NCBI GenBank assembly: GCA_049296855.1
Contig: JBAQTF010000015.1
Span: forward strand, 15,112-79,111
Length of the DNA: 64,000 nt
Direction of reading: 5' to 3'
DNA from: Minisyncoccia bacterium
GTDB lineage: Bacteria > Patescibacteriota > Minisyncoccia > Phycocordibacterales > DATDWN01
The translations under genes and the position numbers were made by a program. The notes under the pieces are model-generated. The model worked only from the letters and a program-made list of their open reading frames with translations. It made no database searches and had not been told where the DNA came from. This document shows positions 5,441-45,191 of the stretch, one piece after another. How positions within the stretch are numbered: position 1 is the stretch's first letter; each line of letters starts with the position of its first letter.

Positions 5441-5514
5441 GTACCACAAGGGCACTTAAAATTTACAAGAGGAATACCTCTAATAAATTTAGGTCGTACC
5501 ACAAGGGCACTTCC
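5441..5514. repeat. Two direct copies of the GTACCACAAGGGCACTT motif, part of a dispersed intergenic repeat family.
   Basis: Identical 17-mers sit at 5441-5457 and 5496-5512. Related copies occur near 19288, 35744, 45137 and 45165. Confidence 0.55.
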
Positions 5515-5529
5515 AAAAATTCCAAGCTG

Positions 5530-6849
5530 TTAATAGTAATTGCGTAACCTATTTATTTTGTCGTGCTGTCGGATTTTTTCATGTGCCTTCGCTTCGATCT
5601 GTCTTATACGTTCTCGAGTAACACCGAACTCCTTACCGACCTCTTCTAGTGTGTGTGTTACACCATCAATAAGTCCGTGACGAAGTTCTAAAATTTTTCT
5701 TTCTTTTTCAGGAAGATCATTTAAAATTTCTTTAACTTGATCAGAGATAATTCTCCTAGCTGATTCTTGATCTGGAGAGAGAATTTTTTCATCCGCAAGA
5801 AAATCTCCTAGCTTTGACTTACTATCATCCCCTTCCTCGCCGATAGGTGTTTCAAGTGACAGAGTGCTCTGATCAATTTTCTCAATAGTATAAATCTTAT
5901 CAACTGCAAGGTTCATTTCTGTAGCTATTTCTTCTGGAAGTGGATCTCTTCCTAAATCTTGAGAAAGTCTACGAACAACTTGTTTATACTTTGCGATAGT
6001 TTCCACCATATGTACTGGAACACGGATAGTTCGCGACTGATCAGCTAATGCACGTGTGATAGCCTGGCGAATCCACCATGTCGCGTATGTTGAAAACTTG
6101 TAACCCTTCGTCCAATCAAATTTATCCACTGCTTTAAAAAGACCAAGGTTCCCCTCCTGAATAAGATCAAGCAAAGTCAAATCTGCACTACGATTTGCAT
6201 ATTTTTTCGCAATTGAAACCACTAACCTCAAGTTTGCACGAGCCAAAAGATTTTTGGCCTCAAAGTCACCTTTTTGTATTCGTTTAGCAAGTTCTTTTTC
6301 CATTCCACCAGAAATTAGAGAATACTGACCAATTTCTTTTAGATACATCTGAATAGAATCATATGAAGATTCTCCTGTTCGTCCATATGTATATTTTTTA
6401 TTGACAAGATCATCGTTAGAGACATCTAAAAGTCCTCCTCCTTCCAATATATCTACTCCGCTTACAGAAAGCTTCTCATAAAGTTCATCTAGAAATATTA
6501 TATCTTCCTCAACTGTTGGAAATTCCTTTAAAATTTCATCATAGGTAACATAACCACGTTCCTTACCTTTATGAAGAAGTCTACCCATTCCCTGCTCTTG
6601 TCTATCTGCTCTCTTCAGAACTACAGTTGGCTTTTTTGCGACTGTCCTTTCTGCTCTCATAGCAAGAGATGATTTGTTTTTCTTTCGTGCCCGAATTTTA
6701 GGCATGACAAATTTCTTTGGCTTTCGTATCTTACGCCTTATATGTCCATGTAGCTCCATTTTTTTCACCTTTTTTGCCGACTGTCGTAGTTTACTCCTTG
6801 TACGTCTAATGGATTTATTATGTTTTGATTTTGATTTACTTTTTTTCAT
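5530..6849 (-). CDS. rpoD: RNA polymerase sigma-70 factor RpoD.
   Basis: Regions 1.2 through 4 are recognisable: [55 protein letters not shown] and [23 protein letters not shown]. It carries an unusual Lys/Arg-rich extension of about 90 aa at the N-terminus. The longest ORF overlaps the dnaG stop by 14 nt, so the true start may be an internal Met. Confidence 0.9.
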
Positions 6850-8581
6850 AAATTCGTTTAATCGTATTAATCTTCTGTGATATACGTTGACACTCTTCTA
6901 AATACCTTAAGATATCACTACTATTTTTTGTTTGTTCTGCTTTTTGGAGTTTAATCATCGCATCAGTAAATTCTTTCTTTAAATATTCTTCTTCTAGTCC
7001 TAGAATCAGTTCTTGTATATCTCTAGATAAATTGGCCTTGTTATTATAATACGCTTCTATCTCAAATAATAGTGACTCTCTCTCTTTTTCAAACTGTTTT
7101 AGAAGTTCTTGCATTCTATTCCCTAAAATCGTTTTCACTCTTTTTTCTATATCTTTTAAATCTATCGTAGCTTGCACCTCAGATGTTGATGGGGGCAAAC
7201 TTTTCTGCCACATAATAATCCCAATAACCTTTCTCTCTATAGCTTCCACCCGTTTACCTCCCGGAGGAGAAGCGTTCGGAATAACTGGTGCCTTGACAGC
7301 TCCGCTTAACCCCAACCGTTTCAAATCATCCCACAAAGCCTCTTCTTTAATGAATGTTTTTTGTGCAATACTTTTTATAAATTGTGATTTCTCTATTGTG
7401 CTTAGAAGCTCCACGATATACGGTAAGACATTTTTTCTGATTTCTTCTCCAAGAGCTCTAGACTCTAGACCACGGGAAAGTAAAACGTCTGTGTAAAAAT
7501 CTATGATATGTTTTGAGTTTCTTAGACATTCTTTCAATTTTTCTGGCTCATCTTTTGCAAGATCAGCTGGGTCTTTTCCTTCAGGCATTTGGGCAATTTT
7601 AAGCTCCATTCCAAGAGAAAGTGCTATATGCGCACTTCTGTTAGAAGCAGAAAATCCAGCCGAATCACCGTCATAAGCCATAATAATTCTATTCGATAAT
7701 CTACGAAGTCTAATTAGGTGATTTTCTGTTAGTGCCGTTCCAGAAGAAGCGACTGTATTTGTCACGCCAACTTGATGCAACAAACACAGATCCATTTGTC
7801 CTTCAACTAGAATAGAATAATCTTTCAGACGAATATCTTTTTTAGCTTTGTCCAATCCAAAAAGAATCTCCGATTTGTTGAAAAGCACTGTCTCTGGACT
7901 ATTGAGATATTTCGGAGACTTCTCGTCAGGAACAAGTGCTCTTCCAGAGAACCCGACGACTCTTCCAGACGAGTCATTTATTGGGAACATGATTCTTCCA
8001 CGAAAAGTATCATAGTAAGCAGACGATGAAGAAAGTGAAATATCTTTTTTCTTTACAAGACCTACTTGGAGCATATCTGTCGTACTAACACCCCTCCCCG
8101 AGAGATAATCAAACAGCTCTCGCCAATCCGCTGGTGCAAAACCGATTCGGAAATTTTTTATTGTTTCTTTTGTAATCCCACGAAAAAGAAGATAATTTTC
8201 TGCTTCTTTGGTTTCCGACAATTTTTTCTCGTAGAAGAACACTGCTTGCTCTAAAACAAAGTGAAGCCTCTCTTTTTCAGTTTTGTCACCACGTTCATAC
8301 TGTTCTAATTTGACTCCAGCACGATCGGCTAAAACTTTCAGCGCCCCGATAAAATCAAGACCTTCAAATTCTTCAACAAAAGTGAAAATATCTCCCTTTG
8401 CCTGACAGCCAAAACAATAATAACTACCTCTATCAGGAGAAACGAAAAATGACGGCGTCTTTTCATTGTGAAAAGGACACCTACCTTTAAAGTTCGCTCC
8501 AGATTTTTCCAGCTTTATATAAGAGCCAACAAGTGAAACTATATCTATTTTTGATTTTATTTGATCAACAGATGAGGACAT
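6836..8581 (-). CDS. dnaG: DNA primase DnaG.
   Basis: It has the CHC2 zinc finger ([13 protein letters not shown]...YYCFGC) and TOPRIM motifs ([13 protein letters not shown]), and sits in the classical dnaG-rpoD arrangement. Confidence 0.9.
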
Positions 8582-8666
8582 GTGTATATAAGTTAGAAAC
8601 TCTACACATAGGGCTAATCTTTTCTATAGTGGTGAAAAGTATTTTACCCTCTCTTATTTTGTTTTT

Positions 8667-11600
8667 CTAAAGAAACTTATTGCGTTCTTCGTATACCACC
8701 TGTCGTGTCTCTCTCATGTCAGAAATCAACTTCGCTTTTCTACTACCTTTGAAACCAGTACCGGCAGGAATAAGTCGCCCAAGTATAACATTTTCCATAA
8801 GACCTGAAAGCTTATCATCAGTACCACGAATAGCACTTGAGATAAGCATGCGTGTCGTGTGTTGGAATGACGCAGCAGCAAGAAAACTCTTTCTTGATAG
8901 TGACACATCTGTAATACCCATAACAACGTCTTCTGCTTTTGCCTCTTCCTTACCCAAAGTCTTAACTCTTAGATTTTCTTCAGATAGAAATGCACTTTCA
9001 ACAATATCACCAGCTAAAAACACTGTATCCCCAGGAAACTTTACTCTCTTTCGTGAGAACATTTGTCGCACAATAGTTTCAATATGTCTTCGAGACACAT
9101 TCTCTCCCTGGAGTTCATATGGTTTATTTATTTCTCGAATAATATAATCTATAGTCTTCTTTTTACCTGCATATTTGAATAATTCATCAATATCTGTAGA
9201 GCCATCAGTAATAATATCTCCCTTTGAAACAGTATCGCCTACTTTCACCAAAATCGTACGATTCAGAGAAACGGAATATTCGATTTTATCTTTACTTTTT
9301 GTTCTATCTTCTAGATTTGGAACAATAGAAATAGATTTTTCTTTGTCGGTAACAATTACATTAGACACTGTACCAGAGACAGAACATACTATAGCCGGAT
9401 TTTTTGGTTTTCTTTTCTCAAACAACTCTTCAACACGAGGTAAACCAGAAACAATGTCCCCTCCACCTGATGCTGTTCCACCAGCGTGCTTTGTATTCAT
9501 AGTAAGCTGTGTTCCAGGCTCACCAATAGCTTGTCCTGCTATAGTCCCAACCGCCTCGCCGAGCTCAACCACCTTATGTCGTCCAAGATCTGAGCCGTAG
9601 CATTTAACACAAATACCGTTAAGAGTCTTACAAGTCAATGGTGATCTTACTGAAATATTTGGGACGCCCTCAATTTCAATAACTGCCGCATCTTTTTTAG
9701 AAAGTAGATGATCTTTTTTAAACAAAACTGTTCCATCTTTTTTAAGAACATCTGCAGCTAAAAACCTACCTTTAATATTTTTTGCAATAGAAACTTCCAA
9801 ATCACTAGCTGCATTTTTATCAATAACAATAAAATCTTTTGTCCCACAATCCTCCTCAGTGATGATAGTATCTTGGGCCACGACGAAAAGTTTTCGAGTA
9901 AGATATCCTGCTTTTGCAGTGTTAAGAGCAAGATCAGTTAAACCTTTTCTAGATCCATGCGTAGTAATAAAATACTCAAGTGGAGTAAGACCCTCTTTTG
10001 AACAAGACAAAATAGGAAATTCTATAGTTTCTCCTACAGTATTCGTGATAAGCCCTTTCATACCAGCCATCTGAGTAATGTTCGACATCGTACCACGAGC
10101 ACCAGACTGAACCATATCACTTACAGGGCCGTTCTTAGGTAACGTAGCTGGCATAATTTTCTCAATTTCAGCTTTTGCACCATGCCAAACCTCAATTGTT
10201 TGTCTCAATCTTTCATCTTTAGATATTAACCCATCATCATAGTGACTAACTATTTTGTCTACTTTCCCTTTAGCCAGATTTGTAATAGCTTTTTTACCCT
10301 CTGGAACAAGAATGTCGTCAAGACCCCAAGTTATGCCTGAGTACGTAGCATATCGAAATCCGAATGTTTTTATTTGATCAATGATTTTCGGAACATTCTC
10401 GATATCATATTTCTCAATAAGATCATCGACTAAAGCAGAAATTTTCTTTCTATTAATTTCATAATTAATAAATGGGTAATCTTTTGGAAGGACTGAGTTG
10501 AAAAGAAGTCGTCCAACAGTTGTCTCAAAAAGTTTACCCCCAAATTGTTTGTATTTATCAGAGTCTGTAGGAAGGATTTTGATTTTTGCACGGAAAGAAA
10601 GTTCATTTAAGTCATGAGTAGTGATAGCAGCATTTGGAGTCTGAAATATTTTACCCTCACCCTTTTCACCAGGAATTTCTTTTGTCATCCAGAAACAACC
10701 AAGAACAATATCAAGCATTTTTGCTGATATTGTAGGATCTCCAGAACCAGGTTTTAATATATTTTTATCTGAAGCCATGATTTCTCGAGCTTCCAGTTGT
10801 GCTTCATCCGACAGAGGAACGTGAACAGCCATTTGGTCACCATCAAAGTCAGCGTTAAAAGCAGAACAGACAAGTGGATGAATCTGGATAGCGTTTCCCT
10901 CGATAAGAATAGGTTTGAATGCTTGAATACCGAGTCTGTGTAAAGTTGGCGCACGGTTGAGTAATACATATCTGTTGGAAATAACTTCTTCCAAGATAGC
11001 CCAAACTTCTGGGATACCGTCTTCAATTAATTTAGAAGCGCCTCTTATATTGTAAGAAAGTTCTTTTTGTAGAAGCTGTGAAATAACAAATGGTTTAAAG
11101 AGTTCAAGTGCCATATGTTTTGGTAAGCCACACTGGTCTAGATGAAGATCAGGGCCAACGATGATAACGGAACGTCCAGAATAGTCCACTCTTTTACCTA
11201 AAAGGTTTTGTCTAAAAATACCTCGTTTACCTTTTAGATTGTCCGCTAGAGACTTCAGTGGTCTTCTTTGCGACTGATTGACAGCACTTCCAGCGCTTCC
11301 ATGTCTTATAGAATTATCTATAAGAGCATCAACAGCTTCCTGAAGTATTCTTTTTTCATTTCGTAAAATAACATCTGGAGCATGTATTTCCTTTAATTTT
11401 TTTAGACGATTGTTTCGGTTTATTACTCTTCTGTACAAATCGTTTACGTCAGATGTCGCATATCTTCCTCCGTCTAGAGGAACCATGGGTCTTAGGGCTG
11501 GTGGTATAACAGGAATATTTGTCAGAAACATCCATTCTGGTCGTGAACCAGAACTAATCATAGCTGATACAACACCTATTCTCTTATTAATTTTACCAGC

Positions 11601-18601: not shown

Positions 18602-18643
18602 GAAAATAATGAGGGAAAAAGAATATATTTTCGGAAGTACTCC
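18602..18643. repeat. Copy of the roughly 42-nt repeat element R1, GAAAATAATGAGNGAAA..GAATATATTTTCGGAAGTACTC.
   Basis: About 40 of 42 positions are identical to 45106-45145. This copy lies between convergent terminators. Confidence 0.55.
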
Positions 18644-18711: not shown

Positions 18712-19251
18712 TCACGATGCAAGTGGTGATAACAGGTACGGCCTGTCGCGAAGATCGCGACTTAGTCGAGCATGACGCTTACGCCACGGCTCAAAATCTC
18801 GAGCAATCGCGTTGAGAAGACGTGCCTTTGGAAGAGAAGTTTCACGAGCCGCAGCACGAATGAAAAAGCTCGTACCATGCTTGGAATACCACCCGATGTT
18901 GTGTCGGCAACGCATCTGGTTTTCGAAAAATCCTGACATGAGCAAACACTGTGCACCAGCCACCTCTAGTGTCTCACCGTCGTACAGGAGATCCTTGTCA
19001 CAGACGAACCGATCGAACACCACACTGAGATTCGCTGGTACTGGAAAATCCACCGAAGAACAAGTCGAGACCTGAGCATAATGTGCAAGCACACTAGCAT
19101 TGTACAAGAGTTCCTGTTGATCAACTTGAGACTCGCAGACATCTAGCAGATTGACTGCGAAGAATTTCACAGTCTGTATGTGATCAGACTGTAAAAGTTC
19201 CCGAAGTTCACTGTCCATGACTGCCTCCATTCCAAAAATTACATTCTGCAT
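18712..19251 (-). CDS. Hypothetical 179-aa protein, with elevated GC.
   Basis: This is a long ORF with roughly 50% GC in a roughly 37% GC genome. I recognise no motif. Confidence 0.45.
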   Translation of the reverse strand: MQNVIFGMEAVMDSELRELLQSDHIQTVKFFAVNLLDVCESQVDQQELLYNASVLAHYAQVSTCSSVDFPVPANLSVVFDRFVCDKDLLYDGETLEVAGAQCLLMSGFFENQMRCRHNIGWYSKHGTSFFIRAAARETSLPKARLLNAIARDFEPWRKRHARLSRDLRDRPYLLSPLAS

Positions 19252-19287: not shown

Positions 19288-19313
19288 CACCACAAGGGCA
19301 CTTCTTGTGTTTC
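19288..19313. repeat. A CACCACAAGGGCACTTCTTGTGTTTC repeat copy that forms a small hairpin (CACAAG/CTTGTG).
   Basis: It is a member of the dispersed repeat family and lies in the 61-nt gap between two minus-strand genes. Confidence 0.5.
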
Positions 19314-19609
19314 TAATTCGCTTCGTCCATAAGAAAACAAAGTCGCATTTTTTCCACACGTGACAATTTTTTAATCCGATATTCTTCTTTTGAGGCCACC
19401 CTGCGGTTACGGAACTTTTTTGAAAAGACAATTTTTACCGGTCTACGAGCTCTGGTGTATTTTGCACCGAGTTTAGTGGAATTATGTTCACGAATTCTCC
19501 TTTTTAAATCAACTGTGATACCTGTGTAGAGAGTTTTATCGGCGCATAGGAGTATGTAGATATAATACATAAGTCCATTATAGCTTTTGTACACAAAATT
19601 TAAGTCCAA
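19313..19609 (-). CDS. Small protein with a GIY-YIG nuclease domain (YhbQ/UPF0213-like).
   Basis: The sequence YIYILLCADKTLYTGITVDLKRRIREHN is a canonical GIY-YIG N-terminal half. The true start may be the Met of MYYIYI, at about 19570. Confidence 0.7.
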   Translation of the reverse strand: MDLNFVYKSYNGLMYYIYILLCADKTLYTGITVDLKRRIREHNSTKLGAKYTRARRPVKIVFSKKFRNRRVASKEEYRIKKLSRVEKMRLCFLMDEAN

Positions 19610-21589: not shown

Positions 21590-21710
21590 GTTTTTGTTTC
21601 CTTCCAAGACAAAGAAAAACTGTTTCTTTTTTTAAAGGCACATTTCTGCATCAACTATGCTCCCAATTTTAAAAAAGTCAAAGTTGAGTAAATAACCACT
21701 AAATCATTCC

Positions 21711-21734
21711 TACATTCTTGAGAATGTTAGAATG
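21711..21734. promoter_or_regulatory. Near-palindromic operator TACATTCTTGAGAATGTTAGAATG, which overlaps the arsR stop and lies upstream of prs.
   Basis: It shares the palindromic core CATTCTTGAGAATG with the second copy at 22040-22073. Confidence 0.45.
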
Positions 21735-21993
21735 ATTTAATAAAAGGAATAAATCTTTTACCATATGGAGAAAGGGAGTGAAGTACATTTCTACCTTGAT
21801 ACTTTTTATTTAATAGTCCGGCATGAACCAATCTTCTAGTATGTTCAGAAACGGTTTTAATATTCTTATCCAGAGCTTCTGCAATCCCCTCCGAAGTAAC
21901 ATCTGGAGTTTTTGAAACTAAAAGTAAAATTTCGATCCGGCAGTGATTTGCCGAACCTTTAAAATATCGTTCAAGTTGTTTGGCAGTTTTCAT
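21727..21993 (-). CDS. ArsR/SmtB-family winged-helix transcriptional regulator.
   Basis: The pattern LERYFKGSANHCRIEILLLV...SEGIAEAL...TVSEHTRRLVHAGLL is typical of ArsR. Confidence 0.75.
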   Translation of the reverse strand: MKTAKQLERYFKGSANHCRIEILLLVSKTPDVTSEGIAEALDKNIKTVSEHTRRLVHAGLLNKKYQGRNVLHSLSPYGKRFIPFIKSF

Positions 21994-22039
21994 ATTTATT
22001 TAGCTAGATATTAATAATATTAATATCTGAGTATACAAT

Positions 22040-22073
22040 AACATTCTTATATTCTCAAGAATGTAAGAATGTT
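22040..22073. promoter_or_regulatory. Near-palindromic operator AACATTCTTATATTCTCAAGAATGTAAGAATGTT, upstream of arsR.
   Basis: It is an imperfect palindrome of about 34 nt. Its reverse complement contains TACATTCTTGAGAAT, matching the copy at 21711-21734. Confidence 0.5.
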
Positions 22074-22106
22074 ATTGTATTGATAGGTAAATTGAGCTGA
22101 AGTGGA

Positions 22107-33199: not shown

Positions 33200-34933
33200 T
33201 TACAGAAAGAGGCGTCCGATGCGAATTTTGAGATACGGCGTACGTTTTTTTTGTTTTATAAGTAGATTGTAGACTGGCGAGAGAGTAGTCGTACCAGTTT
33301 TTTTGAAAGCGGATAGAATATCATCGAGTTCACTGCGTCTAAGTTCACGCTTCAAATAAGTTATATCTGGACACCTATTCGTTTTTTTCAACTTATCAGA
33401 CAAAACCATATCTTCAACATGAGATATGATAGTTTCTGATGTCACTCCCCTAGCCTCTGCAATATCGGCAATTGACACTTCCTCGCGGAGCATATCTGCT
33501 GTTATCTCTTGCGTACTTTTCTTTAGTTCCTTCTCTTTGGCCATACGACCACCGCTCGCTTTCAGCGGTTGTCTTTTTATTTTTACTTTTTCTTCTGGCT
33601 CAATTTTCTTTATCCAAGCTCTCTGTATCTCTAAAATCTCCTCCCGAGACATTTCTTCAAGGTCGAACCTTGAAGTATTAGACATCTCTTGGAACTTTTT
33701 GTCCATATCTAAAACTTCTGGGTCGACTTCGAGCGACATGTCGTTAAACCCGAGGAGTTTCATCCCAGACAGCGACCGCACACGTGACAGGGCAACGTAT
33801 CCCATACCTTTTACAAATGACTTGGACAGATCGACCTCCATAGCATCGAGTGACATTCCCTGACTTTTGTGAACAGTTATCGCCCAAGCAAGACGAAGTG
33901 GCAACTGACTTATTTCCGCTTTTACTTTTCCCTCCTCTTCTATTTTCCACGATTGAGGTTGAACAGAGAAAGTCATTCCACTGTTTGTCCGAACAATGGG
34001 ATCCCCATAAGAATTGAAGTCTGAGACCACACCCAAAGTGCCGTTCACGTATCCGCCCTCTGAATGATTTTTAGTAAACATGACTCGTGCACCCTTTTTT
34101 AGTTCTAAAGTTTCCGGCGATAAACAACTTTTCTTCAAACTCAAAGTCAAACCAGATGAACCTTTGGAAGACATGCTGTAACTTTTTGTTTCCCCAGAAA
34201 TCAAATCAAGGTGCTTTTTATTCACAATATCAACATCAATATTATGCGTATATAATCGAGTTGATTCACCACCTGTATCTGGATCTTTGTTGAAACGAGC
34301 CTTTAAAAGTTCAATTGTTTTCGGAGAAACTTTATTTTCGCGAATCTGATTTAATATAGAAAGATACACATTATCTTTTTGTCGATATTGTTCTGATAAA
34401 TGACAAATAGTGAACTTGGAAGCAAGAAAGCTTTCGGCTTTGTATGCAAATTCAGACTCCAAAACATCACCACGAGTAACAGGTGGAAGTTGGAAAAAAT
34501 CTCCACACAATATAATCTGCATTCCACCAAATGGTTTTTCGCTTCGCTTCATTTGACGGCAAATCCATTCGATCATATCGAGACGAAAATGGTGAAGCAT
34601 CGAAACCTCATCAATAATCAAAACTTTTGTCCTCTCAAATCTTTTGTATAGGTACTGACGTTCCATCAGATCCTCAATATCATAGTCAGTTAGCGTGTCA
34701 CGAATTCCAAGGCCTGACCACGAGTGTATAGTCATGCCCCCAATGTGAGTCGCAGCAATACCAGTCGAAGCCGTGACAGCAACATCCACAGCGTGTTTTT
34801 TTAGATAATTTACATATTCATTTATAACATGGGTCTTCCCGCTTCCCGCCGGACCAGTAATAAAAACATTTTTGCCCATCTTTAAAATATCCAAGGCCTG
34901 TGATTGAAGCATTGGACTATTGTACCAGTACAA
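33200..34933 (-). CDS. Pif1/RecD-family helicase with a C-terminal helix-turn-helix domain.
   Basis: It has Walker A GPAGSGKT and Pif1-like motifs (VLIIDEVSM, ILCGDFFQLPPV). The C-terminal roughly 110 aa resemble the helicase-associated HTH domain. It contains the in-frame repeat insert at 33535-33586. Confidence 0.75.
   Translation of the reverse strand: MYWYNSPMLQSQALDILKMGKNVFITGPAGSGKTHVINEYVNYLKKHAVDVAVTASTGIAATHIGGMTIHSWSGLGIRDTLTDYDIEDLMERQYLYKRFERTKVLIIDEVSMLHHFRLDMIEWICRQMKRSEKPFGGMQIILCGDFFQLPPVTRGDVLESEFAYKAESFLASKFTICHLSEQYRQKDNVYLSILNQIRENKVSPKTIELLKARFNKDPDTGGESTRLYTHNIDVDIVNKKHLDLISGETKSYSMSSKGSSGLTLSLKKSCLSPETLELKKGARVMFTKNHSEGGYVNGTLGVVSDFNSYGDPIVRTNSGMTFSVQPQSWKIEEEGKVKAEISQLPLRLAWAITVHKSQGMSLDAMEVDLSKSFVKGMGYVALSRVRSLSGMKLLGFNDMSLEVDPEVLDMDKKFQEMSNTSRFDLEEMSREEILEIQRAWIKKIEPEEKVKIKRQPLKASGGRMAKEKELKKSTQEITADMLREEVSIADIAEARGVTSETIISHVEDMVLSDKLKKTNRCPDITYLKRELRRSELDDILSAFKKTGTTTLSPVYNLLIKQKKRTPYLKIRIGRLFL
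33535..33586. repeat. GC-rich repeat copy A of about 52 nt, inserted in-frame in the Pif1-like helicase. It encodes KIKRQPLKASGGRMAKEK.
   Basis: The 26-nt core CGACCACCGCTCGCTTTCAGCGGTTG (33546-33571) is identical to 35370-35395 in trmD. The flanks are also similar (CTTTGG.CAT and CTTTTTAT.TTTTAC). Confidence 0.7.
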
Positions 34934-34948: not shown

Positions 34949-35635
34949 TTAGATTTTTTTCGTCTTCCAATCTTCGATTTTTTTATGATCACCAGAGAGG
35001 AGGACTTTTGGTACACGATATTTTTTACCTTTGTATTCAAAAACTTCTGGACGAGTGTAGACATCATGGCTTGAAACGCGAGACTCTTCGAGAGAAGTAA
35101 TATTTCCGAGTACACCACTTATCTGTCTTGCAACACAATCAAGAATCAGCATAGCTGGTAACTCCCCTCCTGTAACAATAAAAGGTCCGACAGATATCTC
35201 CTCCATTTTGAAAACTTTTTTCACACGCGCATCAATCCCTTCATATCTTCCCGACACGATAATAATATCTGTATATTTTACAGATTTTTTTGCATACTCT
35301 GTTGTGAACTGTTTTCCACCTGGAGAGAGAAAAATTATTTTGATTTTTGCCTTTTTTTCTTTGGTCATGCGACCACCGCTCGCTTTCAGCGGTTGCTTTT
35401 TTATATTTTTTACAGCTTTTTCAATCGCCTTCACCGTAGGAATCGCTTGAATGACCATACCCGGTCCTCCACTATATGGCTTCTGATCCACACGTCTCCA
35501 TTTGTCGTCGGAATAATCGCGTGGATTGTAAAACTGCACTTTGATTTTCTTATCCTCTATCGCCCGCGAGAGTATAGACTCATTTAAATATGAGTCAAAA
35601 GCGGACGGAAACAATGTTATGATATGAAAATTCAC
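34949..35635 (-). CDS. trmD: tRNA (guanine37-N1)-methyltransferase TrmD.
   Basis: It has the SPOUT/TrmD motifs RPYSGGPGMV, SGRYEGIDARV, GGELPAM and YTRPEV. It carries a lysine-rich insert of about 14 aa (KKQPLKASGGRMTKEKK) relative to E. coli TrmD. Confidence 0.9.
   Translation of the reverse strand: MNFHIITLFPSAFDSYLNESILSRAIEDKKIKVQFYNPRDYSDDKWRRVDQKPYSGGPGMVIQAIPTVKAIEKAVKNIKKQPLKASGGRMTKEKKAKIKIIFLSPGGKQFTTEYAKKSVKYTDIIIVSGRYEGIDARVKKVFKMEEISVGPFIVTGGELPAMLILDCVARQISGVLGNITSLEESRVSSHDVYTRPEVFEYKGKKYRVPKVLLSGDHKKIEDWKTKKI
35358..35413. repeat. GC-rich repeat copy B, inserted in-frame in trmD.
   Basis: Its 26-nt core at 35370-35395 is identical to the helicase copy. It encodes QPLKASGGRM in a loop that is absent from E. 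coli TrmD. Confidence 0.7.
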
Positions 35636-35743
35636 TAACTACTTTTACCACAAATTTAAGATTTTGTATATTATTTGAATATTAGAACTTTCACAATTTG
35701 GATTAAATCCGACGTGAGCGACTTTGTTTTATTTATAAAACAA

Positions 35744-35760
35744 GAAGTACCCTTGTGGTG
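35744..35760. repeat. A GAAGTACCCTTGTGGTG repeat copy, the reverse complement of CACCACAAGGGTACTTC.
   Basis: It is a member of the dispersed intergenic repeat family and lies upstream of trmD. Confidence 0.5.
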
Positions 35761-35843
35761 AAATTAAAAATGCTCGGAGCCTTACAAGTGTAAGGTGACG
35801 AGAATTTTTAATTTTAGAGCGAGGAGTTAGCCAAATTTGGAAG

Positions 35844-36158
35844 TTATAACTTCAAATCGTTCATTGCGTCGTCTAAGGACTTGGTAGCATTGGTCTTTAC
35901 TTCACGTACCCCACCAGCCGGCTCGTTTATTTTGAGATTTACTCTAGCGTTGTTTTTCATACCAACAACACGGAGTAGTGTTCTTATCGCTTTCGCAGTA
36001 TTGCCTTCACGACCAATAATTTTACCCATATCCGCCTGGTTCACATCCAAAGTCATGAGTACACCCATCTCATCCACCGTCCTAGTAATTTTAACATCAT
36101 TCGGATTTTCAACGAGAGATTTAACAACAAAATCCAGAAACTTTACGTCAGATTCCAT
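35844..36158 (-). CDS. khpA: KH-domain RNA-binding protein (KhpA/YlqC-like).
   Basis: It has the KH motif MGKIIGREGNTAKAIRTLL, in the conserved position between rpsP and trmD. Confidence 0.7.
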   Translation of the reverse strand: MESDVKFLDFVVKSLVENPNDVKITRTVDEMGVLMTLDVNQADMGKIIGREGNTAKAIRTLLRVVGMKNNARVNLKINEPAGGVREVKTNATKSLDDAMNDLKL

Positions 36159-36629: not shown

Positions 36630-36799
36630 CTCTTTCAGAAATAACGTTATGAACTAATGATTTCTAAGTATCTAAACACAAGAATTTCGGTAAAAAATAG
36701 AGTTTTGTCAGTCACTCGTATCTAGATACGCCTCCCTCCTCATCCTCTATTTTTTCCTCAAAATTCTTGTGTTTATATTACTTATTATTTCTGAAAGAG
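36630..36799. repeat. Large imperfect inverted repeat spanning the rpsP/rnr divergent promoter region, with arms of about 55-70 nt and a central GTATCTAGATAC palindrome.
   Basis: The left arm CTCTTTCAGAAATAA...AAACACAAGAATTTCGG...AATAGAG (36630-36702) matches the reverse complement of the right arm CTCTATTTTTTCC..AAATTCTTGTGTTTA...TTATTTCTGAAAGAG (36745-36799). Confidence 0.5.
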
Positions 36800-38794: not shown

Positions 38795-38800
38795 AAGAAA

Positions 38801-38824
38801 ACCTCGCGCCGTAAAGCGCGAGGT
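38801..38824. terminator. Bidirectional hairpin terminator between rnr and the convergent minus-strand gene.
   Basis: The stem ACCTCGCGC/GCGCGAGGT has a T-run only on the minus side. Confidence 0.5.
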
Positions 38825-38842
38825 CCCAACAACGACACAAGG

Positions 38843-39283
38843 TCAGTTCACGAACTTAGAGGCCAATTTACCATGGCCAGCTAGATAAGCCATACCGATC
38901 ACTGTATCCAGCTTACGATGGCACTTCATAACCTCTTTTTCATATTTCCTAATCTCTGAAACAATCAAATCCTTTGCATAAACTGGGCTATCTTTTGCAA
39001 GTTCTTCGGAAAAGCGCTCGGTCCAATATCCCCGCTTCTTGAAGGCATCTTGCAATTTGTCTTCCTTTTCCTGCAACTCCTCCTTAAGTCCGTCTGTACC
39101 TAACAAAAACCACACACGAAATGACCGAAGACCAGGGATGTAGGGTAACCAAATCAAGATACATAGGAACGCAGAGATCACCAGAGAGATCAAAACTGTA
39201 ATCATGGAATCACTCCTTATCCGAGCTTCCAGGCCCGGCAACTCGCAAGGTCCTTCCTTGCGATCTTTTTGTAGCATAATCAC
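38843..39283 (-). CDS. Hypothetical membrane protein of 146 aa.
   Basis: It has one TM helix and a charged C-terminal domain. GC is elevated. Confidence 0.4.
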   Translation of the reverse strand: MIMLQKDRKEGPCELPGLEARIRSDSMITVLISLVISAFLCILIWLPYIPGLRSFRVWFLLGTDGLKEELQEKEDKLQDAFKKRGYWTERFSEELAKDSPVYAKDLIVSEIRKYEKEVMKCHRKLDTVIGMAYLAGHGKLASKFVN

Positions 39284-39303
39284 AAAAACTCAAAAAGTCA
39301 AAT

Positions 39304-41577
39304 TTATTTCGCAACTGCAACTGCTTCTTCAAAGGAGACGGACAAAAGTTTTGATCCCCCTCCAATGCCCATAGTCACCCCATACAAAATCCCCGCTCGA
39401 GACATTGTTTCGCGATTATGAGTAATGACAATAAGCTGTGAACGTCCCGATAAATTTTCCACCATATCTGCGTATTTTTTTGAATTTGCTTCGTCGAGAG
39501 CTGCATCGGTTTCATCCAAAATAATAAACGGTGGTGGATTTACCTGTGAGATAGCAAAGAGAAGCGCAATGGATGTCAGTGCTCTCTCACCCCCCGAAAG
39601 CATCATGAGACCCTTTATCTTTTTCTTTGGTAAATTCACTTCAATATCGATCCCTTCTTCTGTCGTAGCTTCACCTAATGTTAATTCGTCTTCGGCCGAA
39701 GGTAAACTGTCAAAAATATCCTCATCTTTGATTTTACGTTTTTGAGGCACAGTTACTGAAAGTTTTGCTTCTCCACCACCAAACATCAAGGCAAAATATT
39801 CTTTGAACTGAATGTTTATTTTTTCCAATCCTGTTTTGAATTCTATGTCTAATCGCTGGTTTAAATCTAAAATAAGCTCGGACAAAGACGCCGCTGATTT
39901 TTCCAAATCTGCAATTTCTCTCTCCAGAAACATATCGCGTTCACTAGCCTCTTTGTATTCTTTAAGTGTCTCAGCTCCACCAATTCCACCTGATTCCTCA
40001 AGACGAATTTTTATCTTTTCTATTTTTCTTCTTCTCTCCTCTTGAATATTTCGTGGTTCGTTAAAATCACCTGCCTGCCCATTTGGGAGACTTAAAGATT
40101 GATACTGTAAGACTGCAGTTCCGATCATCATGCTGAGCTCATTTAACTCTCTTTTAAAATCCTCGCTAATAATTCGAATTACCTCTTCTTGGTTTACAAG
40201 ATCATGTAATTTAGATCTAACCTCCTGCGACTCCGCCATAATGCGAAAAACTGCTTTCTCGGCATCTCGATTGGAATCTTTTTCTTTCTCAATCTCTTCT
40301 TTTAGTTTCGAGTAGCGTGAAGATAGAGCTTCTTCTTTTTTCTTAGCCTCTTCAAGTTTTTCTTCAAATTCTCTTTTAGATTTCCTTAAGTTGTTAATAT
40401 CTCTGTGAACATCTGTAAGAAGTGACATATCTACTTTGTCCTTATTGTGATCAATATAATCCGTGATAAGTCCATATATTTCGTCGAGTGCTTGGGAGAG
40501 TGACGTTAAATCTCCGGAGCTCTTAGCTGATTTGATTTTCTCTTCTATTTTAGCGCTCAATTCTTCAATAGAAACTAGAGTAACTGTCTTATGTTCATAA
40601 GAATGTGCTACCTCTTCCTGTTTTTTCACCATTTTCACAAGAGAGTTTAGCTCACCATCAAGACGACCAAGTTCACGAAATAAACTATCTTTTTCGTCTC
40701 TAAAACTATGTAAATCACTCTCAAGTTGAATCAATTCGCTTGATTTCTCATCTTTGTTTTTGGCTTTTTCTAAAACAGCTTTGGCCGAGCTCAATTCTCT
40801 CTCTAATTCTTTTTCCTTGTGAGTAAGTGGTAATTTTTCAGTATAAATTTTCTCTTTTGTTCGACTAATATATTCCTCTTCTCGTTTACAGTACTCTAGA
40901 GCCAAAACATGAAGTTCTTCCTCTAATTCGATTCCTTTTTGCACTTTCTCAACCTGCTTTTTCAAAAATTTGATATGAGGATTTATCTCACGTCGTAATG
41001 ATTCAACTTGTTTTATATTTTCTCGAGTCTTTTCAAGTCTCTTTTCACTTTCTTGTTTTTTGTATTGATAGAGTTTCAGACCAAGAGCATCCTCTATCAT
41101 TGTTTTGCGCTCTTTTGTACTAGCATTTAAAATTCTATCTGCTTCTCCTTGAGAAATAATGTGATGTCCAGATGAACCAATATGTGCAGAGGCAAGAAGT
41201 TCTACCACATCTCGTAGACGTACCTGTGAACCGTTTATCAAATACTCATTTACAGAGTCACGATGGACAACACGCTCAACAGTAACTGTTTCATAATCGA
41301 TCGGCAGAAATTTTGTACTGTTATCAAAAACGACTTTCACACTAGCTCTGTTTGCCCTCGGTAAATCCCCCGCTCCATTCCAAATGAGATCTTCACCCTT
41401 TTTACCACGCAGACTTTTTATTGATTGTTCACCAAGTACAAAACTAAATGCCTCGGCAATGTTCGATTTTCCAGATCCGTTCGGCCCAACAATAGCCGAA
41501 ACTTTTGACTTAAACTCAAGTTCGCTCTTTTTGGCGAATGATTTAAACCCCGAAAGTTCTATCGATTTTAAATACAT
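39304..41577 (-). CDS. SMC/RecN-like chromosome-associated ATPase, short at 757 aa, apparently without a hinge.
   Basis: It has an N-terminal Walker A GPNGSGKSN, a long coiled coil, and a C-terminal signature LSGGERALTSIALLFAI...ILDETDAALD. Confidence 0.7.
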   Translation of the reverse strand: MYLKSIELSGFKSFAKKSELEFKSKVSAIVGPNGSGKSNIAEAFSFVLGEQSIKSLRGKKGEDLIWNGAGDLPRANRASVKVVFDNSTKFLPIDYETVTVERVVHRDSVNEYLINGSQVRLRDVVELLASAHIGSSGHHIISQGEADRILNASTKERKTMIEDALGLKLYQYKKQESEKRLEKTRENIKQVESLRREINPHIKFLKKQVEKVQKGIELEEELHVLALEYCKREEEYISRTKEKIYTEKLPLTHKEKELERELSSAKAVLEKAKNKDEKSSELIQLESDLHSFRDEKDSLFRELGRLDGELNSLVKMVKKQEEVAHSYEHKTVTLVSIEELSAKIEEKIKSAKSSGDLTSLSQALDEIYGLITDYIDHNKDKVDMSLLTDVHRDINNLRKSKREFEEKLEEAKKKEEALSSRYSKLKEEIEKEKDSNRDAEKAVFRIMAESQEVRSKLHDLVNQEEVIRIISEDFKRELNELSMMIGTAVLQYQSLSLPNGQAGDFNEPRNIQEERRRKIEKIKIRLEESGGIGGAETLKEYKEASERDMFLEREIADLEKSAASLSELILDLNQRLDIEFKTGLEKINIQFKEYFALMFGGGEAKLSVTVPQKRKIKDEDIFDSLPSAEDELTLGEATTEEGIDIEVNLPKKKIKGLMMLSGGERALTSIALLFAISQVNPPPFIILDETDAALDEANSKKYADMVENLSGRSQLIVITHNRETMSRAGILYGVTMGIGGGSKLLSVSFEEAVAVAK

Positions 41578-41627
41578 AAATTAAGAATTTAAAATAATTA
41601 TAACAAATTTTTAACGTAATAGAAAAA

Positions 41628-41669
41628 GCACACTCTAGGAAAAGCGAATGTGCTTTTCCTAGAGTGTGC
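41628..41669 (-). terminator. Intrinsic terminator for the gene at 41687-41917.
   Basis: The perfect 18-bp stem GCACACTCTAGGAAAAGC...GCTTTTCCTAGAGTGTGC is followed by a T-run on the minus strand. Confidence 0.6.
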
Positions 41670-41686
41670 ATGGGGACGACAAACAT

Positions 41687-41917
41687 TCACACAGACAACT
41701 TGCGTTCGTGTCTACTGAGAGCGCAAGAAAGCTCTCGGATTGACTCGTTGGCACGTTCTGCCTCAAAGTAGTCTCCTTGTTTGAGACTACTCTCCAGACA
41801 TTTCCGCCGTTTTAAGATCTCGATTCGCAGAGTCTTACAACGCGATAGTCTCCACTGTTTCAAAAAGTGTTTCAAAAGTTGGGGCATGAGCTCCCTCCGT
41901 CCACTACTATACACCAA
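41687..41917 (-). CDS. Hypothetical basic 76-aa protein.
   Basis: A terminator follows it. It matches no family. Confidence 0.35.
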   Translation of the reverse strand: MVYSSGRRELMPQLLKHFLKQWRLSRCKTLRIEILKRRKCLESSLKQGDYFEAERANESIRELSCALSRHERKLSV

Positions 41918-41937
41918 CTAACACTGTTTGTAAATAG

Positions 41938-42627
41938 TTAGTTCCAACCTCTTTTTTGCAAAGCTTCTTTGGCCGCCTCTTGTTCCGCATCTTGTTTCGA
42001 TTCTCCCTCTCCTGTCGCTACTAGTTCCTTTCCTACATAAACACCGACAGTAAATTTCTTTTCGTGATCTGGGCCAGATTCCTTCATTGTCTTATATAAA
42101 GGCGTAATACCATCAAACTCTTGTGCTTTTTCTTGAAAAAGACTTTTTGCATCAACGTGACTCCCTGCAGAAATAATATCTTCGATAAGTGGAGTAAAAT
42201 TAGTTTCAATAAAATCTTTAGCTTTATCCAATCCTTGGTCAATGTAAATTGCACCGATAAGAGCCTCGAGTGCATTTGCTAATATGTACTGCCTCGCACG
42301 ACCAACGTCTTTACTCTCACCTTTTGATAGCAGAAGATATTCTCCCATTCCGAGTTTTGTCGCAACACCAGCACATGTGTCAGCATTTACCAACGCAGAA
42401 CGATAAGCGGTCAGTTCACCTTCTGCTTTGTTTTCATATTTTTTGTATAGAAAATCTGTGATAACTAATTCCAACACTGCGTCGCCCAAAAACTCCAAAC
42501 GTTCGTTGTGAAAAAGTCCTGATGCTTTGTTTTCGTTTATATAGGAACGATGAACAAAAGCTTGTTTTAATAAAGCTTTGTTGCCAAAACTAATTTTAAT
42601 TTTCTTCTCAAATTGTTCAAAATCCAT
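41938..42627 (-). CDS. rnc: Ribonuclease III.
   Basis: It has the RNase III signature ERLEFLGDAVLEL and a C-terminal dsRBD. Confidence 0.9.
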   Translation of the reverse strand: MDFEQFEKKIKISFGNKALLKQAFVHRSYINENKASGLFHNERLEFLGDAVLELVITDFLYKKYENKAEGELTAYRSALVNADTCAGVATKLGMGEYLLLSKGESKDVGRARQYILANALEALIGAIYIDQGLDKAKDFIETNFTPLIEDIISAGSHVDAKSLFQEKAQEFDGITPLYKTMKESGPDHEKKFTVGVYVGKELVATGEGESKQDAEQEAAKEALQKRGWN

Positions 42628-42628
42628 A

Positions 42629-43525
42629 TTATTTCTTCTGAAGTAGTATATTGATAGCCTTTGTCACAAGTGGAAGTATATCGTTATAAAAATTTAGGTC
42701 AAGGATATCGGCAAGTTTGAACCATTTTGCATCGTCAAGGCCTCCCTTAGCCTCCATGATGATATCTTGGAACTTTGACTCAGCTAAATAGTAGATAACG
42801 TGTTTTTTTATCTTACCTTTTTCTGGATGATATGTTGGATACTCGTTTTCTCCAAGTTTTTCTTTCAATTTTATGTCGAGACCCAACTCCTGTTTAATCT
42901 CACCTATAATGCCCTCTTCTATGCCCTCACCATCTTCAATATGTCCTTTGGATAGAGTCCAGCGACCAAACACGTCGTGAACCAAGGCCAGATAAATATC
43001 CTCTCCATCACGAGCAAAAACTACCGCACCACCCAGATGTTCTACTGGCACGACTCCGTTGTTAAAGTTTTTCTTTTTATCTTTTGATGTTTCGTCTTTA
43101 CCAGGTTCACCAAGCTCTTTGTACACTGCACCGAGAACACCATTGACGAATTTACTTGATGTTTCCCCACCAAATGTTTTCGATAGCTCAATAGCCTCGT
43201 TTATAGCAACTTTTGGAGGAACCTGAGCTCTGTCGGCAAATAACAATTCAAATAGTCCGATACGAAGAATGTTTCGATCTATAATACTGATTTTAGTAAT
43301 CGGCCAGTCAGGAGCTGCTTTTTCGATAATCAGATCGATGTCTTTTTGTTTATCCAATACACCATCAATCAAATTTTCCATAAAAGAAAAATCTCCGTGA
43401 CCAGGTGCAAATTCTTTTGCATCACGCATGAAGATTTCCTTTGCCTGTGTAGAATTTTTAGTACCAAAATCCCACTCAAAGAGTGACTGTAGAACTATTG
43501 ATCTGGAAAGGTGCCGATTCGCCAT
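42629..43525 (-). CDS. nusB: NusB-like antitermination domain fused to a C-terminal Nudix hydrolase domain.
   Basis: The N-terminus (about 1-140) is NusB-like (RSIVLQSLFEWDF, IDRNILRIGLFELLF). The C-terminus has a complete Nudix box GHIEDGEGIEEGIIGEIKQELGL. Confidence 0.75.
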   Translation of the reverse strand: MANRHLSRSIVLQSLFEWDFGTKNSTQAKEIFMRDAKEFAPGHGDFSFMENLIDGVLDKQKDIDLIIEKAAPDWPITKISIIDRNILRIGLFELLFADRAQVPPKVAINEAIELSKTFGGETSSKFVNGVLGAVYKELGEPGKDETSKDKKKNFNNGVVPVEHLGGAVVFARDGEDIYLALVHDVFGRWTLSKGHIEDGEGIEEGIIGEIKQELGLDIKLKEKLGENEYPTYHPEKGKIKKHVIYYLAESKFQDIIMEAKGGLDDAKWFKLADILDLNFYNDILPLVTKAINILLQKK

Positions 43526-43577
43526 GACTGCTTACTAGTATAGAACATTCCAAAACAAACAACAACAAAACTAAAAG

Positions 43578-43805
43578 TTATCTCCCCTCCTTTTTCTGAG
43601 CTGAAACCTTCTTTGCTCTTTTTGTAATTTTTGCAGCAACATCAATAACCATTCTGCCTTTATACTGACCTGTAACAGTTGATGCCCTATGTCGTAAATG
43701 TGGAGTATTTGTGTTTTTATCCAAAGTTACAGCAGGACTCACGAGCCTGTGGTGAGACCGTGTGCTGTTTCGCTCACTCTTTGTATGACGCATTCTTACA
43801 ACCAT
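43578..43805 (-). CDS. rpmB: Probable 50S ribosomal protein L28 (divergent).
   Basis: It is small and basic. NSTRSHHR..P and the C-terminal GRMVIDVAAKITKRAK pattern resemble bL28. The call is uncertain. Confidence 0.4.
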   Translation of the reverse strand: MVVRMRHTKSERNSTRSHHRLVSPAVTLDKNTNTPHLRHRASTVTGQYKGRMVIDVAAKITKRAKKVSAQKKEGR

Positions 43806-43860
43806 AATGAAGATAGACTACACTAAACTCTAAAAAAAATCAAATGAATATTTTTTAACA

Positions 43861-43884
43861 AAAAACCACCGACATTTGTCGGGG
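43861..43884 (-). terminator. Intrinsic terminator after the Nudix gene.
   Basis: The stem CCGACA..TGTCGG is followed by TTTTTT on the minus strand. A 13-bp hairpin at 43895-43930 overlaps the end of the gene. Confidence 0.5.
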
Positions 43885-43920
43885 TTGCTGTAGAGGTCTC
43901 GTGAGGTGGTAATCCATACC

Positions 43921-44442
43921 TCACGAGACCTTGGCTAGAAGTTGCTTCTGTATACGCGGAATTGCCTCTTTGAAAGCAGGCATGTGGGTCCGGTAGAGAT
44001 TGACCCTACCACTCATGATGTCACTGACAGAAGCCCAGTACGGTGGAAAGAGTTCCGTCTCCTCTTCGTACTTAATCTCCTCCGTACGGAGGCTACCCTC
44101 GAGAGCATCGTATGGGAAGAGAAAGAAAACCTTTCGAGCTTTCTTGGCAATCCAATCATAAACCTTTTCAGGTTCAAAACCAGACCTCAGTAAAAGAAAA
44201 GTCTCCTCTGAATACTCCCTTCTTAAGGTTTTGACCAGGGTTATAGGTTTTGTGAGGTCACCATCTTCTGGTTCCCACATTCCACCTGGGAACCTGGTCA
44301 GTATCCCTTGCCGACTATATTCTGGAAGTAGAAACTTCCCATCTTGCAAAAGAACCTCGATCTTGCCACCTAATTCTCGGTAGGAAATCCCGCCGACAAA
44401 AGGTATATTGTCCATCTGTTCCTCCTCTCGACATAATAACAT
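43921..44442 (-). CDS. Nudix-family hydrolase.
   Basis: It has a degenerate Nudix box, GGMWEPEDGDLTKPITLVKTLRREYSEETF. Confidence 0.55.
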   Translation of the reverse strand: MLLCREEEQMDNIPFVGGISYRELGGKIEVLLQDGKFLLPEYSRQGILTRFPGGMWEPEDGDLTKPITLVKTLRREYSEETFLLLRSGFEPEKVYDWIAKKARKVFFLFPYDALEGSLRTEEIKYEEETELFPPYWASVSDIMSGRVNLYRTHMPAFKEAIPRIQKQLLAKVS

Positions 44443-44465
44443 TTAACTGTATTTAAGTCAATATT

Positions 44466-45062
44466 TCAGCTTTTCAGGAAGGTCTTGCGATGTATTGGAG
44501 TTTGACCGTTCTTTTTTATCATTTTTATGTGCTTTTCCGTACCATAGCCTTTGTGTAACTCAAAACCATATTTAGGAAACTTTTTACTCAAGCGTGACAT
44601 GAGCGTGTCCCGAGAGACTTTAGCTAGTATTGATGCCCAAGCAATTATTTTCTCTTTCTCATCCCCTTTTATAATGGTCTTTTGATTTTTAAACTCCTGT
44701 GGAGCTTTTAGATTACCGTCAAGTAACACTTCAGTATTTTTTGGATTTAGTTTTAGTTTTTTGATATTTGAAAATATAGCTTTGTTAATGGCGAATAATA
44801 TTCCTCTTGAATCAATGATTTTATTCCCAATGTGAGTTATAGAATAAGAAATTTTTTTCTCTTTTGTTAGATTTTCCAAAACTTTTTGAAATTTTTCTCT
44901 TTCAAGTGGTTTTAGTTTTTTACTATCCTTTCCATGAGCAGGCAGAGTTCGAGAATTTTTTAATTTTTTGTAAATATTTATCTCACAGGAAACAATACAA
45001 ACAGATACTGGTCCTGCTAACGGACCTCGACCGACTTCATCAACTCCAGCAATGATTTTCAT
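44466..45062 (-). CDS. rnhB: Ribonuclease HII.
   Basis: It has the N-terminal GVDEVGRGPLAGPV signature. Confidence 0.9.
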   Translation of the reverse strand: MKIIAGVDEVGRGPLAGPVSVCIVSCEINIYKKLKNSRTLPAHGKDSKKLKPLEREKFQKVLENLTKEKKISYSITHIGNKIIDSRGILFAINKAIFSNIKKLKLNPKNTEVLLDGNLKAPQEFKNQKTIIKGDEKEKIIAWASILAKVSRDTLMSRLSKKFPKYGFELHKGYGTEKHIKMIKKNGQTPIHRKTFLKS

Positions 45063-45105
45063 ATTGAAATCTTAACACGACTTTGTTTTCTTACGAACGC
45101 GACCT

Positions 45106-45191
45106 CGAAAATAATGAGTGAAACGAATATATTTTCGGAAGTACTCTTGTGGTGTTAGTAAGTTAGAAACACAAGAAGTGCCCATGTGGTA
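45106..45191. repeat. Composite repeat region: the R1 element (45106-45145), GAAGTACTCTTGTGGTG (45137-45153), and an inverted partner GAAACACAAGAAGTGCCCATGTGGTAC (45165-45191).
   Basis: R1 is about 95% identical to 18602-18643. The core motifs match copies at 5441, 5496, 19288 and 35744. Confidence 0.55.

Follow-up and report, generated by a model that had tools for sequence, protein, structure and literature searches.

The window analysed here, a stretch of 64,000 nucleotides (nt) from contig JBAQTF010000015.1 of a Minisyncoccia bacterium, encodes divergent versions of housekeeping proteins (RpoD, DnaG, RpoB/C, DnaE, GyrB, TrmD, S16 and RNase HII), and its nearest relatives among species representatives are Patescibacteria. 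Dispersed through it is a small repeat for which an earlier interpretation (the sequence-only reading) had taken a 17-base core as the repeat unit. The core is real, but it is the 3' flank, or right-hand end, of a larger hairpin-forming DNA unit that is non-coding and about 42-67 nt long. A search of the window for the core pattern CACCACAAGGGYACTTC with at most two mismatches returned six matches, at 5442-5458, 5497-5513 and 19288-19304 on the plus strand and at 35744-35760, 45138-45154 and 45175-45191 on the minus strand, compared with a mean of 0.01 in shuffled sequence and none of 100 shuffles reaching six. The original observation is thus borne out, and the positions first given were correct to within one base, with the first two copies and the one placed at 45137 each shifted by one. 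When the window was re-read with a covariance model built from the element (the R1 model) and with an nhmmer profile, neither detected copies beyond those described below and a tract at 18602-18643. The window holds six or seven copies in its 64 kilobases (kb), with a strand split of 3:4.

The order of the unit, established from the window copies together with a genome scan, is (R)CGAC(W)TT, a variable hairpin and then AAGAAGTRCCCTTGTGGTR, and the full consensus can be written YRCGACWTT-GTTTTCTTAYGA-GCGAAGC-GAATTAGAAAAC-AAGAAGTRCCCTTGTGGTR. A short form carries a 16-nt hairpin (for example GTTTGATTTATCAAAC), and a separate subfamily is recognized by its ends, CGACC...GGAAGT. The defining features of the hairpin are a conserved T.T mismatch, tandem G.A/A.G pairs and a GCGAAGC-type apex, which is an R-N-A triloop closed on a C-G pair and is said, from the work of Hirao and colleagues, to be a classic ultra-stable DNA mini-hairpin. 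Outside the element the profiles are flat upstream of -6 and downstream of +5, and no -10 hexamer is conserved across copies after GTGGT. The conserved hairpin lies upstream of the core. The CACAAG/CTTGTG hairpin that had been proposed is made of invariant bases and is absent from the CGACC...GGAAGT subfamily.

Pairing in the upstream stem was assessed in 63 distinct copies over 13 pairs, using column shuffles (n=500) and slid partners as controls. Paired cells make up 93.7% of the stem, relative to 82% in the column shuffles and 39-56% with slid partners, and compensatory changes on both sides are seen at 11 of the 13 pairs, with the observed measures reached by none of the 500 shuffles. The shuffle test overstates significance because the sequences are related; that relatedness affects neither the slid controls nor the evidence from many independent pair types (GC/AU, UA/CG/GC). 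The T.T mismatch is present in 57 of the 63 copies and the tandem G.A in 48-49, and G.U exceeds A.C in the stem by 18 to 9. The written strand is more stable than its complement in 63 versus 8 copies under RNA parameters and in 76 versus 4 under DNA parameters, and therefore one particular strand folds. Folded singly, the window copies range in z from -4.6 to +1.95 and do not all reach significance, so that it is the comparative data that carry the argument for structure. Taken together, invariant flanks around a covarying stem suggest that one strand folds while single-stranded and is recognized by a conserved trans-acting protein.

Within the window, copy C (19288-19345, minus strand) is the canonical, full-length example, scoring 74.7 bits against the R1 model (E=4e-19). 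The final 11 codons (RLCFLMDEAN) and the stop of a GIY-YIG gene (19313-19609; Pfam) lie in its first 33 nt. A homologue of this gene in contig L019 is alignable only up to residue 90 of 98, and the claim that every copy is intergenic accordingly holds for nearly all of them, the exception being the 5' half of copy C at the 3' end of this gene. The 3' end of copy C and its flank read TGGTGCAAT, upstream of a gene for 179 residues (18712-19251). Copy D (35719-35760, plus strand; 60.7 bits, E=4e-15; DNA fold z=-3.1) has the short-hairpin form, GTTTTATTTATAAAAC. It runs antisense to the rpsP-KH-trmD operon and directly adjoins a large palindrome at 35761-35814. A 170-nt stretch that includes copy D is 86% identical in a related contig, L057, where the flanking genes are unalignable with those of the window.

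The remaining copies are found abutting or interrupting one another. Copy A (5442-5496, minus strand; 36.9 bits, E=3e-8; DNA fold z=-4.6) is a complete element whose hairpin has diverged; it reads CGACC-TAAATTTATTAGAGGTATTCCTCTTGTAAATTT-TAAGTGCCCTTGTGGTA, and its 3' end and flank form an extended -10-like string, TGGTACAAT, 32 nt before the start of an open reading frame (ORF) for a 61-residue zinc-ribbon protein (5225-5410). It adjoins copy B (5497-5563, minus strand; 10.6 bits) head to tail, the junction reading ..CCCTTGTGGTA|CGACC... Copy B is degenerate, retaining the 5' CGAC and a 3' core with one mismatch, with the hairpin gone and no stable fold; the model aligns it as CACGACA, 45 nt and GAAGTGCCCTTGTGG. 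Copy E (45100-45154, plus strand; 34.1 bits, E=2e-7) is a full element of the CGACC...GGAAGT subfamily with a diverged hairpin, CGAAAATAATGAGTGAAACGAATATATTTTCG, that contains the tandem G.A. It lies exactly between two halves of copy F, at the hairpin apex. The 5' half (45078-45099, plus strand) is CGACTTTGTTTTCTTACGAACG, which aligns with the 5' half of copy C, and the string CGACTTTGTT occurs in the window only there, in copy C and in copy D; the 3' half (45155-45191, plus strand; 16.2 bits) is TTAGTAAGTTAGAAACAC-AAGAAGTGCCCATGTGGTA, with a core carrying two mismatches. Judged from this arrangement of the sequence, copy E appears to have inserted into copy F as a nested insertion. These 45.1-kb copies had been described as an inverted pair, but both have the same orientation. 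Finally, the tract at 18602-18643 (plus strand) is a relic located between two convergent terminators, giving a partial nhmmer match (E=1.1) and no covariance-model score at E<=10. Its hairpin and that of copy E have about 93% identity, and both ends are lost, the 5' CGAC being missing and the 3' core decayed beyond GAAGTACTC. The likeness earlier drawn between 18602-18643 and 45106-45145 is real, but what the two share is the hairpin of copy E and not a separate 42-nt module.

The element extends well beyond this genome. A scan with AAGAAGTRCCCWTGTGGT, restricted to one genome per species, returned at least 119 matches at no fewer than 117 loci, of which at least about 104 are in metagenome-assembled genomes (MAGs) of Patescibacteria/Parcubacteria, representing more than 60 genomes besides the source. 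The family is common to a superphylum-level group and not confined to one genome. Every Patescibacteria locus listed has the hairpin and (R)CGAC(A/T)TT before the 18-mer, and the lineages represented are Wolfe-, Taylor-, Yonath-, Campbell-, Kaiser-, Vogel-, Nomura- and Zambryskiibacteria, Paceibacterota and Minisyncoccia, with NCBI giving Kaiseribacteriota phylum rank within the Parcubacteria group. The element also occurs in records carrying the unverified label 'uncultured Candidatus Saccharibacteria', and one MAG so labelled is about as close to the window as one 'Paceibacterota' MAG. Matches outside Patescibacteria consist of the 18-mer only and score 22-31 bits; taken with the viral matches, these 13 lack the hairpin and fall within 16-31 bits. 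The flanks of the element are identical among genomes whose orthologous proteins share 30-70% identity. Applied to the same 8-kb loci (the candidate phyla radiation, CPR, share of 0.73 Mb), the covariance model recovered at least 17 additional copies. No Rfam 15 family overlaps any copy in the window and six loci, either at the gathering score or at E<=1.

Relative to their nearest ORFs the copies are oriented approximately at random, with 27 between convergent genes, 20 and 21 co-directional in the two senses and 14 between divergent genes. Across 106 copies the downstream gene lies on the same strand in only about 40%, and orientation relative to the sign of GC skew splits 29:29, with no bias. 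The 183 flanking ORFs are unrelated housekeeping genes in which no Pfam family is enriched and none has more than two members. Most copies are intergenic, many of them next to terminators or tRNA genes; a tRNA or tmRNA gene lies within 300 nt of 26 of the 106 copies relative to 13.7 expected, at loci that are already tRNA-rich. Local clusters are mainly direct (about seven direct versus two inverted), and abutting arrays hold two to four units. The number of units can differ between identical flanks, as one locus has three units in one assembly (L163, 2950-3127) and two in another (L047, 2228-2348), in both cases directly upstream of a gene for a XerC/D-like integrase. When large source arrays were sought in metagenomes, only arrays of two to four units were found, with no recurrent neighbour gene.

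Truncated copies, intragenic copies and sites that lack the element complete this pattern. Among distant relatives of the window, L129 has an rnhB-dnaE spacer of about 75 nt without the element, and L018 carries the terminator palindrome without the element upstream of trmD. L129 also has a full copy in frame inside dnaE, translated as RHCFVASEASYETRSAHVV. The tgt gene of L053 holds an antisense, in-frame copy, which forms part of a longer extra segment separating the two parts of the TGT domain. L068 (6316-6398) has the 3' half of an element joined directly to a tRNA 3' fragment that terminates in CCA, and a terminator comes next; no full tRNA is detected, and this junction looks like the scar of an att site.

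The element is, in our judgement, probably a non-autonomous palindromic repeat of Patescibacteria, akin to repetitive extragenic palindromic (REP) sequences, Rickettsia palindromic elements (RPE) and miniature inverted-repeat transposable elements (MITE), that acts as single-stranded DNA and is handled by a putative conserved enzyme. Of the three options raised by the sequence-only reading, a REP/MITE-like family is the one that the evidence favours. What is observed directly is the anatomy of the element, the covariation of its stem, its distribution and random orientation, and the occurrence of nested, arrayed and intragenic copies; mobility, a single-stranded DNA substrate and the enzyme are what we infer. 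Copies would be dispersed and duplicated through the genome in the manner of REP, RPE or MITE, would land mostly between genes and at times in arrays, inside one another or in frame within genes, and would decay after landing. The written strand would fold as single-stranded nucleic acid and be bound by a conserved trans-acting protein, with handling at the DNA level by a putative enzyme, HUH-like or a recombinase, that nicks or transfers strands. Individual copies may be co-opted by the host, as copies A and C set the extended -10-like strings TGGTACAAT and TGGTGCAAT 30-45 nt before start codons, and copy C in addition supplies the stop codon of a gene.

Several observations weigh against this interpretation. 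Selfish repeats are not usually near-identical over 17-19 nt across very divergent genomes. Inspection did not reveal convincing terminal inverted repeats, the ends CGACA../..TGTGG agreeing at five of eight positions; no target-site duplication was found, and linkage between left-flank and right-end bases, including TGGTR, was not significant. The 29:29 split relative to GC skew argues against a lagging-strand mechanism of the IS200/IS605 type. Close strains offered no direct contrast of filled and empty sites; three other assemblies (GCA_049297715.1 and two from SRA) are 99.8-100% identical to the window over the stretches compared. A search of 5.8 billion proteins for peptides of the canonical element yielded no candidate, which indicates that intragenic copies are rare. 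No transposase, relaxase or RAYT-like gene is present in the window or among about 190 neighbouring ORFs, in which the only integrase is the Xer-like one beside the array, and the gene for 179 residues that lies between copy C and the relic has no Pfam match and no HUH motif. In two further contigs (L045 and L107) the element occupies one and the same position, where it overlaps tRNA-Arg(TCT) at its CCA end. The flanks are identical and the stems differ by a compensatory change, while the tRNA itself has diverged. This pattern looks like purifying selection for a host function or else very precise targeting, and together with the conservation of the flanks it points to recognition by a conserved protein or to a host function.

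A bolder extension of the palindromic-repeat interpretation, which we regard as speculative and rather unlikely, is that the element is more than selfish and serves as the substrate of a putative Patescibacteria-wide protein, an HUH nickase/relaxase-like or Xer-like one, acting on the folded strand, with the copies as genome-wide nick or recombination sites. Such a role would explain 17-19 invariant bases across lineages with 30-70% protein identity. If it were true, the copies might represent domesticated sites of the REP/RAYT kind, or else oriT-like points at which DNA enters during exchange between these episymbiotic cells.

The alternative that survives best, although it remains an unlikely one, is a structured RNA module, carried in the transcripts of neighbouring genes or made from a promoter of its own, in which the G.A hairpin and its single-stranded flanks would bind a protein or RNA in processing, stability, a tRNA-linked signal or the action of a small RNA. 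The strong, strand-specific covariation of the stem is what such a module would show, tandem G.A pairs are typical of RNA, the conservation resembles that of functional RNAs, and the twofold excess of tRNA/tmRNA neighbours and the apparent positional orthologues at tRNA-Arg(TCT), with their compensatory change, point the same way. With a 20:21 ratio of sense to antisense copies, however, half of them would be wrongly oriented. Neither promoters nor terminators are conserved at any set distance from the element, no Rfam family matches, and one copy is antisense in tgt and another in frame in dnaE. Moreover, the GCGAAGC-type apex is known as a DNA mini-hairpin, and the bias in strand stability is greater with DNA than with RNA parameters.

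A chromosomal DNA site with a host function, recognized for instance by a Xer-like tyrosine recombinase, a relaxase-like nickase (the copies then being dispersed oriT-like sites), gyrase or a nucleoid protein and kept by selection without self-propagation, appears improbable. In its favour are the invariance of the flanks over a superphylum-scale range, the array directly upstream of the XerC/D-like integrase gene in L047 and L163, the att-like junction with a tRNA 3' fragment in L068, and a hairpin followed by a conserved single strand, ..AAGTGC.CCTT.., that resembles the RSF1010/MOBQ oriT. The covariance model nevertheless gives no match at the RSF1010 oriT, no relaxase or mob genes and a single integrase occur among the roughly 190 neighbours, and the 29:29 split shows no replichore polarity. 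Decayed, truncated, nested and intragenic copies are likewise unexpected under host selection.

Largely refuted, and very improbable, is a promoter or UP element, or an operator for the global regulator raised by the sequence-only reading, common to downstream minus-strand genes. Every window copy lies upstream of some minus-strand gene, and copies A and C, correctly oriented and with TGnTAcAAT-like strings, precede start codons by 30-45 nt. But the orientation of copies is random and agrees with that of the downstream gene in only about 40%, copies occur between convergent genes and inside ORFs, the downstream genes share no common function, and no -10 hexamer is conserved in the bases that follow GTGGT. 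The stem, moreover, varies in sequence and length with its pairing kept, which is not expected of a double-stranded operator.

The genomes of Patescibacteria (CPR) are tiny and considered poor in mobile elements and in known non-coding features. A repeat present in tens of copies per genome with near-invariant flanks offers a handle on a DNA or RNA transaction common to the group. It could also serve as a marker for CPR contigs, may contribute to breaks in MAG assemblies, and gives rise to errors of annotation, among them odd tails of genes, peptide segments inserted into DnaE and Tgt, and spurious small ORFs.

Several other palindromes and repeats occur near the copies. The palindrome that abuts copy D (35761-35814) is an inverted repeat with 26-nt arms that lies outside the element; it follows the KH-domain gene, is probably its bidirectional terminator, and recurs in L018 (1-60), L057 (about 4930-4990) and L109 with the element on either side. 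On one strand it contains an internal G.A/A.G loop. Two contigs of GCA_049297715.1 (JBAQUU010000005 and JBAQUU010000008) end or overlap at window positions of about 35908-36045, roughly 150-300 nt from copy D. The divergent spacer between rpsP and rnr holds a further inverted repeat (36670-36778), in whose arms the sequence-only reading had noted related strings. The 11-mer AAACACAAGAA does occur there twice, among four occurrences in total relative to 0.13 expected, but the arms receive no covariance-model score as copies; they are possibly decayed elements or a shared promoter feature.

A 54-nt direct repeat, 89% identical, lies in two unrelated genes, at 33531-33584 in one for a Pif1-like helicase and at 35355-35408 in trmD, and the covariance model gives no match to it. 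The repeat is translated in frame in both proteins as K(K/R)QPLKASGGRM(T/A)KEK, the window TrmD is about 19 residues longer than its family profile, and the repeat looks like a second, RPE-like intragenic family. A near-perfect palindrome with 23-nt arms (ACATTCTTATATTCT/AGAATGTAAGAATGT) and a related copy (21698-21734 and 22033-22080) flank a gene with an HTH_5 (ArsR-like) domain (21727-21993) and are probably its operator. Rfam RF03531 ('sRNA included into helicase gene') has matches below threshold at 3129-3229 of the window (minus strand) and at 1794-1893 of L057; they fall inside a UvrD/AddA-like helicase gene and probably reflect coding-sequence conservation. L057, a related Patescibacteria contig, also has a match to the type III hammerhead ribozyme at 7186-7239 (42.7 bits, under the gathering score of 48.5).

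Comparison with known systems set aside a number of identities. ComX/cin-box, CIRCE, LexA and sigma-54 readings of the core were ruled out by inspection and by the random orientation, and a REP/BOX-type repeat of low-GC Firmicutes was discarded as the window belongs to a Patescibacteria MAG. The element is not a relic of a GIY-YIG gene, as tblastn elsewhere finds the last few codons only and GIY-YIG adjoins 2 of 95 downstream neighbours. A tRNA intron or tRNA-like element was likewise rejected, the local tRNA enrichment being merely twofold and the L068 case being a fragment beside a tRNA 3' piece. A viral origin is not supported by ten IMG/VR matches that have the core without the full element, and in five of these, from related contigs (L009, L010, L013, L015 and L016), the core consists of codons for the zinc-ribbon peptide MKCPCG. 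For an integron attC, the stem 5'-GTTTTC...GAAAAC-3' has GTT/AAC at its outer ends, the copies are scattered among core genes and one Xer-like integrase is adjacent; this identity was dismissed, as was a dif/Xer-like 28-mer across the array junction, which agrees by eye at 14 of 28 positions and whose arms are not inverted repeats. Derivation from an IS200/IS605-type element is opposed by the absence of GC-skew bias (29:29), the single hairpin and the failure to find tnpA or tnpB. TIGR-Tas arrays, with dual repeats of 8-12 nt and spacers of 9 nt (PMC12045711), differ from the element in architecture.

The RSF1010/R1162 (MOBQ) oriT is similar: here too a GTTTCTC/GAGAAAC-type stem carries a GAA loop, and a few bases 3' comes a conserved single strand that includes AAGTGC(G)CCCT. 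In IncQ1/MOBQ plasmids the RSF1010 arrangement, GTTTCTC-GAA-GAGAAAC followed by ..AAGTGCGCCCT, was confirmed between mobB and mobC. Membership in this class was rejected, since the R1 model does not match the RSF1010-type oriT of L168, mob and relaxase genes are absent from the vicinity and the copies are many; by analogy, the likeness may serve as a lead on mechanism.

The closest parallels are found among small palindromic repeats. Like the REP/REPIN-RAYT system of Proteobacteria, in which RAYT is a Y1 HUH transposase, the element combines a short imperfect palindrome with a conserved single-stranded tag beside the stem, and it occurs in tens of copies that are mainly extragenic, often near terminators, non-coding and presumed to form single-stranded hairpins. 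In contrast to REP, its tag is CGAC plus a 3' flank of 17-19 nt and not a 5' GTAG, its copies are single or in direct tandem where REPINs are inverted doublets, and no RAYT (Y1_Tnp) was found in the window or in about 190 neighbouring ORFs. RPE are palindromic repeats of a reduced, host-dependent genome that lie in frame in essential genes and add a peptide segment (PMC10969869). The in-frame copies in dnaE and tgt of relatives and in the GIY-YIG tail of the window are RPE-like, yet RPE are 100-150 bp long, restricted to Rickettsia and often intragenic, whereas the element is shorter, rarely intragenic and bounded by invariant flanks. It shares with bacterial MITEs (Correia/CREE, ERIC, RUP and BOX among others) a non-autonomous, dispersed and foldable character, size variants, truncated copies and occasional co-option as promoters or gene ends. 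Unlike them, it lacks clear terminal inverted repeats, a target-site duplication and a parent insertion sequence, and it is much smaller and far more widely conserved. The papers searched contain neither the element sequence nor, as far as was found, any CPR repeat of this kind. While REP are confined to one genus or species group, the element is conserved across many Parcubacteria lineages of phylum rank, and it can thus be described as a previously undescribed, widely conserved variant of the small palindromic repeat.

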